DNA of 13,238 bases from a virus (IMGVR_UViG_2526164633_000018:1-13238), one strand, 5' to 3'. Shown: positions 345 to 1,493, counted from the stretch's first letter. Numbers and translations are program-made. Notes: generated from the sequence alone by a model not told the origin.

Positions 345-1493
345 ATGAGCAGCAAGCTTCATGGTCTTGTCTGGGAAGGGTGCGCCTTCACCGGCATGAT
401 CTTATCCAGGGTGGCGGTTATGGCCCGTCTTGCAGACTACAGCAATGACGAGGGCGTGTCATGGCCTGCCATTGAAACTATCCGGCGTCAGATCGGTGCA
501 AGAAGTGAATCCACAGTGAAATCGGCTATTGCAGAACTGGCGAAAGAGGGCTGGCTGACGAAGGAAGAGCGTAAGGTCGGTGGGCGTAATGTAAGCAATA
601 TCTATCGGCTTAATGTGGAAAAACTCGAAGCAGCTGCGGCGGCGGCGCGTGAGTCATATAAACCGAAAAGAAAAATTAGCCCGGCAAAAAATGACCCGTT
701 AACAGTTGACCCGTCAAATATTGACCCCTCAACGGTTGACCCGTCAAATTTTGATGGATCAACTGTTGATAAAAAACTGCCGATTAGGGGGGCGATGATT
801 GACCCCGATCCGTCAGTATTAAAACCTGATCCGTCAGATAAAAGATCTTCTTGTCCGGACGCTTCGCAACCGGACCCGCAGACGGCTGAACAGGATTTTT
901 TAACCCGACACCCTGACGCGGTTGTGTTCAGTGCGAAAAAACGCCAGTGGGGAAGTCAGGAAGATTTGGTGTGCGCACAGTGGATCTGGGGACGAATCGT
1001 GAGTCTTTACGAGCAGGCGGCCAGCGATGATGGCGAGATCACTAGACCGAAAGAACCCAACTGGACAGCATGGGCCAATGACGTTCGCACAATGCGGATG
1101 CTGGATGGCAGAACTCACAGACAAATTTGTGAAATGTTTGGGCGTCTCCAGCGGGATTCGTTCTGGGTAAAAAACATCATGAGTCCGGCAAAACTCCGGG
1201 AAAAATGGGATGAACTGGTTATCCGCCTGGGGCGTTCGCCTGCGCAGCGTTGCGTGAATCACATTTCTGAACCGGACACTGAAATACCGCCGGGATTCGA
1301 GGGGGTGACGTGTCATGAAAAACATTGCGGCAGGTTGGGGTTCTTGAACGTATTCGCAGACTTGCACCGACAGGGGTCGCTCCACCGTACCGGACGGTGG
1401 AGGAGTGGCGGGAATGGCAACTTGCTGAAGGACGAAAACGCAGCGAGGAGATTAACCGCCAGAATCGCCAGTTGCGGGTGGAAAAAATCCTGA
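345..1493 (+). CDS. Replication initiator (O-like): N-terminal HTH domain plus a C-terminal region resembling primosomal protein DnaT
   Basis: ATG at 345 follows a G-rich SD (cggggg, 335-340); the six-frame ORF opens at GTG 330. The N-terminus (ARLADYSNDEGVSWPAIETIRRQIGARSESTVKSAIAELAKEGWL) looks like an HTH. The C-terminal motif SEPDTEIPPGFEG matches my recollection of the DnaT C-terminus (…[13 protein letters not shown]). The last ~60 codons (VTCHEKHCGRLG…) are rich in C/H/R/G/W and look like an out-of-frame read-through into the next gene. Confidence 0.7.
   Translation: MSSKLHGLVWEGCAFTGMILSRVAVMARLADYSNDEGVSWPAIETIRRQIGARSESTVKSAIAELAKEGWLTKEERKVGGRNVSNIYRLNVEKLEAAAAAARESYKPKRKISPAKNDPLTVDPSNIDPSTVDPSNFDGSTVDKKLPIRGAMIDPDPSVLKPDPSDKRSSCPDASQPDPQTAEQDFLTRHPDAVVFSAKKRQWGSQEDLVCAQWIWGRIVSLYEQAASDDGEITRPKEPNWTAWANDVRTMRMLDGRTHRQICEMFGRLQRDSFWVKNIMSPAKLREKWDELVIRLGRSPAQRCVNHISEPDTEIPPGFEGVTCHEKHCGRLGFLNVFADLHRQGSLHRTGRWRSGGNGNLLKDENAARRLTARIASCGWKKS
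692..766 (+). repeat. Iteron array inside the initiator gene: five tandem 15-bp repeats (TGACCCGTCAANNNT consensus), putative origin of replication
   Basis: Direct repeats tgacccgttaacagt / tgacccgtcaaatat / tgacccctcaacggt / tgacccgtcaaattt / tgatggatcaactgt, each with an internal TGAC..GTCA dyad. An A-rich stretch (tgataaaaaactg) and two gatccgtcag repeats follow at 767-830. At protein level this encodes the (V/I)DPS(N/T) repeat. Lambda's ori lies inside O in the same way. Confidence 0.55.

Follow-up and report, generated by a model that had tools for sequence, protein, structure and literature searches.

A 15-bp iteron array inside an O-like initiator gene is the probable initiator-binding part of a lambdoid prophage replication origin

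In phage lambda, replication starts from an established arrangement in which iterons and an AT-rich tract midway through gene O are bound by the O protein itself (PMC7466680). A run of short tandem repeats lies at a comparable place in the O-like initiator gene of a prophage from Escherichia coli, and raises the question of whether these repeats are the origin, or instead a regulatory site, a coding repeat or an RNA-level element. To address this, we analysed a 13.2-kb stretch of this prophage (hereafter the window) together with homologs of its initiator gene. We find it probable, on sequence comparison, that the array is the initiator-binding part of a replication origin located within the initiator gene, just as ori-lambda lies within O.

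The window spans a lambdoid prophage of E. coli from its early-right to its late region, and its first 2.1 kb are 99.8% identical to prophages of many complete E. coli genomes. The genes at its left end are:

5–322: YdaT-like gene, C-terminal part
345–1308, plus strand: O-like replication initiator gene, extent as in intact relatives (320 aa; PHROG 391)
1315–2062, plus strand: DnaC/IstB-like helicase loader gene (Pfam IstB_IS21, E = 7e-19; PHROG 50 'DnaC-like helicase loader', E = 8e-82)

The order after the loader is DUF1627, DUF977, several small genes, hok/sok, DUF968, RusA and antiterminator Q, downstream of which come the sRNAs STnc100 and AgvB and then a SASA-type esterase. Three Rfam matches above the gathering score, all upstream of the esterase gene (10763–12616), correspond to the sok antitoxin RNA (6566–6741, beside a hok-like ORF), STnc100 (10364–10554) and the anti-GcvB sRNA AgvB (10555–10616, minus strand). 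The DUF1627 gene (2084–2552) is present as two ORFs (2084–2287 and 2298–2552), whereas relatives have a single 256-aa ORF (e.g., L001 5082–5852); this may reflect a further frameshift or a variant. The segment 3344–5128 contains duplicated 31-mers (that at 3344 recurs at 4610 and that at 3832 at 5098) and similar ORFs of about 70 aa at 3397–3609, 3642–3860 and 4663–4875, and resembles a cassette of accessory genes duplicated in tandem. No sigma-70 promoter or terminator patterns were found in 1–2200 of the window.

The database label of the initiator gene is only 'helix-turn-helix domain-containing protein'; in the window its frame is listed as an ORF from 330 to 1493, and in the 99.8%-identical E. 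coli locus L001 (3345–4307) it is annotated as a 320-aa HTH protein. Nevertheless, its product matches PHROG 391, 'replication initiation O-like', from end to end (E = 2e-115), and resolves into the following parts:

417–557, plus strand: HTH_36 N-terminal DNA-binding domain (Pfam PF13730, aa 25–71, E = 2.6e-6, above the cut-off)
888–1244, plus strand: C-terminal domain homologous to the lambda O C-domain (BLASTP)
1245–1308, plus strand: DnaT-like C-terminal tail (phmmer); relatives end in VNHISEPDTEIPPGFRG followed by the stop codon

A weak DnaD_N match was also recovered in the N-terminus. The C-domain (aa 182–300) is 39% identical to residues 171–277 of lambda O (BLASTP, E = 5e-26), and tblastn searches with the initiator recover many lambda-type O genes. 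No homology to the lambda O N-domain is detectable in the initiator, as BLASTP aligns the C-terminal halves only. The last 20 residues of the initiator (QRCVNHISEPDTEIPPGFRG in the intact form, L001 4245–4307) are a near-copy of the very end of DnaT, a replication-restart protein of the host, as indicated by phmmer matches in the PDB (9zbt, 2ru8 and 6aep, E about 1e-4), and the gene order initiator to DnaC-like loader mirrors that of dnaT to dnaC. This tail is found in 44 of the 81 family members of at least 250 aa, and 38 of those 44 are without a recognisable loader gene downstream. How DnaT recruits DnaB/DnaC is still unknown for DnaT itself (PMC13377028), and the tail offers a separate lead on that process.

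Between the HTH_36 and lambda-O-like domains, at nt 346–435 of the gene (aa 116–145), lies the array, followed by further repeated elements:

690–779, no strand: iteron array of six head-to-tail 15-bp units (tandem repeats, homolog conservation, synonymous-site constraint, hairpin)
787–806: degenerate head-to-head half-site pair GGGGGGCGATGATTGACCCC, read from the sequence
807–847, no strand: two GATCCGTCAG boxes (807–816 and 828–837) and a third GATC (844–847) in a moderately AT-rich patch (homolog conservation)

The units, in codon register, are:

690, unit 1: AATGACCCGTTAACA
705, unit 2: GTTGACCCGTCAAAT
720, unit 3: ATTGACCCCTCAACG
735, unit 4: GTTGACCCGTCAAAT
750, unit 5: TTTGATGGATCAACT
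765, unit 6: GTTGATAAAAAACTG

They encode the peptide NDPLT VDPSN IDPST VDPSN FDGST VDKKL. An earlier note, made from this DNA alone, had placed a repeat run and two boxes inside an O-like ORF just after its HTH domain, and in these respects it was accurate: the array lies downstream of the HTH_36 match, the period is 15 bp and both GATCCGTCAG boxes are present. Its description of the units, five of them each with a TGAC..GTCA dyad, needs amending. The core is TGAC-N2-GTCA, but the exact dyad is confined to units 2 and 4; units 1 and 3 each deviate from it by one base, unit 5 has the form TGAT..ATCA with a G-rich inverted centre (TTGATGGATCAA), and a sixth, degenerate unit (765–779) consists of a half-site and a run of six A. 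Tandem Repeats Finder reports a 15-bp period over 671–769 with about 5 copies, outscored by a 30-bp super-period (84% matches), and detects no second repeat array elsewhere in the window. With one mismatch or none, the sequence TGACCCGTCA is found at six places in the 13.2 kb, five of them within 692–836, against an expectation of 0.77 per window; six occurrences were reached in none of 200 shuffles. Along the array the pentamers TTGAC and GTCAA take turns, separated by spacers of 2 bp and 3 bp, so that any neighbouring pair forms a palindrome. The bound site may be either TTGAC-N2-GTCAA or the junction palindrome GTCAA-N3-TTGAC, as both fit the sequence. The degenerate pair at 787–806 has as its counterpart in relatives of the same clade (L008–L011, L042 and L023) the perfect palindrome GGGGTCAAtggTTGACCCC.

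For the comparative analysis we assembled 85 distinct homologous genes, comprising 80 loci (one genome per species, Enterobacterales) and five genes from phage records; IMG/VR contributed a further 80 loci that were 97–100% identical to the query and added no diversity. At least two consecutive in-frame 15-bp units with TGA-N4-TCA are present in 80 of the 85 homologs and at least three in 76, with the arrays beginning at nt 288–387 of the gene and ranging from 2 to 9 copies.

Boxes of the form GATCC(G/A)TCAG accompany these arrays in 79 of the 85 homolog ORFs, usually as a pair, with a spacing of mostly 24 bp, or of 18 or 21 bp in the window's clade (21 bp in the window itself). The Asp codon within them is GAT in 138 of 139 boxes, as against 57% elsewhere, whereby the Dam site is preserved, and the density of GATC rises to 12 per kb in the box region from 3 per kb in the rest of the ORFs. 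Unlike the iterons, the boxes are common to all three clades of N-domains defined below (loci L003–L087). Their independence of clade and the retention of the Dam site suggest a role involving a host factor, Dam or SeqA rather than initiator specificity. In 63 of 76 loci, the 30-bp window of the ORF that is richest in AT (74% on average) falls 30–90 bp past the array; the corresponding maximum in lambda, just after iteron 4, is 83%. We accordingly propose 807–847 as a candidate unwinding or loading region with Dam sites. This unwinding element is where the origin model is weakest: the best local 30-bp windows of the window's own patch reach 65–77% AT and −36 to −38 kcal where the mean is −42.6, i.e., only 1–2 SD less stable than the window mean, and the nearest-neighbour stability scan finds no strong unwinding element in the window, whose least stable DNA is at 3344–5128 (AT-rich) and 10357.

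The closest functional model for this arrangement is ori-lambda, which, also in the Stx phages 933W and P27, lies mid-gene at the junction of the N- and C-domains. The four annotated ori iterons of lambda occupy nt 349–433 of O, compared with nt 346–435 for the array. In both cases several dyad-symmetric sites are followed by an AT-richer stretch, here only a moderate one, the C-domains are homologous (39%), and the gene belongs to the early right operon and adjoins a helicase-loader gene. The differences are equally clear: the N-domain is HTH_36 and falls outside the lambda O N-domain family (Phage_rep_O); the units are contiguous with a 15-bp period, whereas the 18-bp lambda iterons start 20–24 bp apart; the AT-rich patch is weaker (65–77% vs. 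83%); GATC boxes are conserved; and the loader is DnaC/IstB-like, not P. The earlier note was thus right that the lambda origin is embedded in O in the same way with a different geometry, though its figure of 18–19 bp for the lambda period should be replaced by starts 20–24 bp apart.

One reading that keeps the array as genuine initiator-binding sites would confine them to regulation (autorepression, copy control or exclusion of related phages), with opening and helicase loading taking place elsewhere. Plasmid iterons often serve both replication and regulation, and the lack of a strong AT-rich element beside the window's array and a core near-match, TGACACGTCA, at 1306–1315 on the initiator/loader junction would agree with such a role. 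However, a single extra core match in 13 kb is within chance (0.77 expected), the 13-kb window offers no second array, the AT-rich patch with its GATC boxes is positionally conserved past the array in 63 of 76 loci, and the layout copies that of ori-lambda, where the same sites are the origin. We consider an exclusively regulatory role unlikely.

A second reading holds the repeats to be a feature of the protein only, namely a flexible pentapeptide linker rich in Asp, Pro and Ser, that arose by slippage and is maintained for its properties as a peptide, with the origin elsewhere. It accommodates the inter-domain position of a low-complexity x-D-x-S-x repeat, the strictly in-frame array in all 80 homologs that have one, and the copy number of 2 to 9, as slippage would give. 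To separate peptide from nucleotide constraint, we picked the repeat residues by peptide alone, as [DE]xS within aa 96–150. The serine of this motif is encoded by TCA in 400 of 450 instances (89%), compared with 196 of 1350 (15%) for serines in other parts of these genes, and the serine three residues upstream by TCT in 201 of 237 (85%), against 113 of 1350 elsewhere; the GAT of the boxes (138 of 139) is fixed in like manner, and none of these codon choices is needed for the peptide. By comparison, at N-domain residues conserved in at least 90% of the homologs the commonest codon accounts on average for only 49% of cases, which indicates that synonymous sites are otherwise scrambled at such divergence. 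The amino acids at slots 1, 3 and 5 of the pentapeptide vary widely, the most variable positions of the unit being 7–9, a whole codon at the centre of the dyad (A, P, T, G or L). Moreover, in the window's clade a 12-mer is found in both orientations, TTGACCCCYCAA and TTGAGGGGTYAA, which encode unrelated peptides of the IDPPN and VEGLT types. Third codon positions 3 and 12 of the unit are also nearly fixed, a figure that is circular as the units were selected on the TGA..TCA motif. Covariation across the dyad does not exceed chance at the inner pairs, (6,9) with 67 against 62.7 expected and (7,8) with 57 against 69.6, and the palindrome is thus confined to the outer arms; a GAC..G to GAA..T change in the Stx2a-phage clade, at first a candidate for covariation, was dropped as the inner pairs are at chance level. 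On the evidence of codon usage, these comparisons show that the array is under selection at the nucleotide level, beyond that on the peptide. The fixed codons, inverted copies and variable residues together contradict a coding linker only, the very explanation by which the earlier note had said its origin claim could fall, and we regard it as very unlikely.

The initiator-binding reading of the array is further addressed by the variation of the units between lineages. The N-domains of the family form three clades, each with its own unit consensus:

TCTGACgCgTCAAAA: 69 genes
aTTGACccgTCAAct: 9 genes, the clade of the window
TCTGAcCgTTCAGAa: 7 genes

At the junctions of the large clade the sequence reads GTCA-AAATC-TGAC, with an A-rich centre resembling that of the lambda iterons and those of Edwardsiella phage GF-2. 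N-domain, array and GATC boxes occur as one block, fused to at least three combinations of C-domain, tail and loader; the downstream loader is lambda-P-like, DnaC-like or not recognisable, and the mosaic joint falls just past the GATC boxes. Such co-inheritance is what one would expect of an N-domain and binding sites that make up a single functional unit, the covariation here being that of three clades only; the HTH_36 domain is the presumed reader of the iterons. Two partial matches were also noted. K-12-derived genomes have a segment with 76% identity to 707–900 of the window, at about 2.467 Mb in an MG1655-derived strain, a position that we take to be the yfdO remnant of CPS-53 (KpLE1). 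A 455-aa protein (L087), taken as YmfN-like (e14-type), retains no more of the N-domain than its first 79 residues and lacks the array.

The whole array is also an inverted repeat with 33-nt arms that as a single strand would fold into a hairpin (−16.9 kcal/mol, z = −5.3), but a role as an RNA-level element, cruciform or recombination hotspot, i.e., an mRNA hairpin tuning initiator translation or a site of phage module exchange near the mosaic joints of the homologs just downstream, is highly improbable, given that hairpin potential is automatic in a tandem array of dyad units, that the origin region matches no Rfam family (nor any tRNA), that clade-specific units point to a sequence-specific protein reader, and that lambda too has mosaic joints past its origin (misc_recomb features).

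Taking the array as initiator-binding sites of an origin, other known systems help delimit how far its geometry extends. The 'putative replication protein O' of Edwardsiella phage GF-2 is a distant HTH-type relative (29% identity) with a similar N-terminal fold signature, a lambda-O-like C-domain and perfect tandem repeats at the matching position of the gene. These repeats, however, are of 24 bp in 2.8 copies with a 16-bp dyad (ATCCCAAAATTGGGAT), a lambda-like geometry, and the gene that follows carries the annotation of a P-type replication protein; the 15-bp geometry therefore belongs to a sub-family only. The earlier note had pointed to Rac-type prophages for comparison. The gene neighbourhood is indeed alike, as K-12 Rac has a YdaT-like gene followed by the initiator YdaU and the YdaV-type DnaC-like loader, but YdaU is of another family (DUF1376, not HTH_36) and has no 15-bp array. 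K-12 ydaU instead has internal repeats of its own, AAGCAGATGTTCAA, in four copies with spacings of 33, 33 and 12 bp (L002 2972–3063, nt 353–444), in a region that also holds an 11-bp inverted repeat; these are unrelated to the 15-bp array and yet match its relative position in the gene, making them a candidate location for oriJ. The theta-plasmid iteron origins (pPS10, RK2, F and P1 types) likewise have direct repeats in tandem to which a winged-helix initiator binds, and Dam sites occur in some of these origins (e.g., P1). Plasmid iterons, though, are usually of 17–22 bp and are situated outside the rep gene near DnaA boxes and a clear AT-rich element, whereas those described here are of 15 bp and inside coding sequence. 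The Rac origin oriJ has been reported to be active (PMC3945230), and Potrykus et al. 2000 is the oriJ paper cited in PMC11014345.

The searchable literature yielded no published binding or origin data and no paper on the repeats of this initiator family (older subscription papers are possible), and the paper on the 'Eru' Stx-phage replication region does not discuss origins or repeats. From the sequence comparisons, the locus is best read as an ori-lambda-type design with a different DNA-binding domain, a different repeat spacing, a weak AT patch and conserved Dam sites, in what appears to be an undescribed form. The suggestion of the earlier note that the array is a probable origin is thus borne out by the initiator gene that hosts it, its lambda-like position, the conservation of synonymous sites across about 80 species and the clade-specific units inherited with the DNA-binding domain. 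The origin reading is supported by these comparisons, from which we infer the function.

By analogy with lambda, the initiator would be made from the early rightward operon, and its N-terminal HTH_36 domain would bind the alternating TTGAC/GTCAA half-sites of the 15-bp units, with several bound copies assembling a nucleoprotein complex over about 90 bp. The resulting strain might open the flanking, moderately AT-rich stretch with the GATC boxes (about 745–847), upon which the lambda-O-like C-domain and the DnaT-like tail would bring in DnaB via the DnaC-like loader or host DnaC, and the conserved Dam sites could time or sequester firing. A bolder proposal, which we offer tentatively as rather unlikely, is that this is an origin design apart from the lambda O-some: a contiguous lattice of overlapping 15-bp dyads that opens at Dam-methylated GATC boxes and acquires its helicase through a tail copied from DnaT. 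If so, neighbouring 15-bp sites would be about 150 degrees apart around the helix, such that the initiator would spiral round the DNA or drive cruciform extrusion; the GATC boxes would replace the classic AT-rich element as the site of opening; and the DnaT-derived tail would link phage initiation to the primosome route, with helicase recruitment by the tail explaining the family members, a majority, that are without a loader gene.

A search for autonomous replicons with this module turned up mostly prophages within large records. Among the matches, NZ_CP148542.1 (L169; 15,977 bp) is deposited as a circular E. coli plasmid, and its initiator shows 94% aa identity over the first 172 residues. 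We set it aside as evidence for autonomous replication: the record contains nothing but a prophage segment running from cI to lysis, which might represent a circle of the lambda-dv type or result from misassembly.

The window's own copy of the module deviates from the 99.8%-identical E. coli prophages by four indels within 80 bp: a G is inserted near 1298, 1333 and 1369, and a base is missing near 1378. The first disrupts the last two codons of the DnaT-like tail, changing the initiator's end from PPGFRG and a stop to PPGFEGVT with a further 62 residues, the frame reading to 1493; the second detaches the ATG of the loader (1315), the open frame of which starts at a TTG at 1325; and the last two cancel each other. 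Among the best-matching complete E. coli genomes none has these indels, which may be sequencing errors or signs of decay (pseudogenisation). With the initiator tail and the loader frameshifted, this copy of the module may be defective or inactive. The array DNA itself is intact in the window.

Of 5426 complete E. coli genomes, 1087 carry the 261-bp array region at 99% identity or more, and relatives of the module are found in about 80 species of Enterobacterales, making this a very common replication module in prophages. If the array is indeed part of the origin, as we think probable, a known start site would aid the reading of prophage induction, including that of prophages, Stx-type and other lambdoid ones, whose replication regions are not of the lambda kind. 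A compact cassette of origin plus initiator would also become available for study, along with a natural comparison with lambda of how repeat spacing relates to origin opening.
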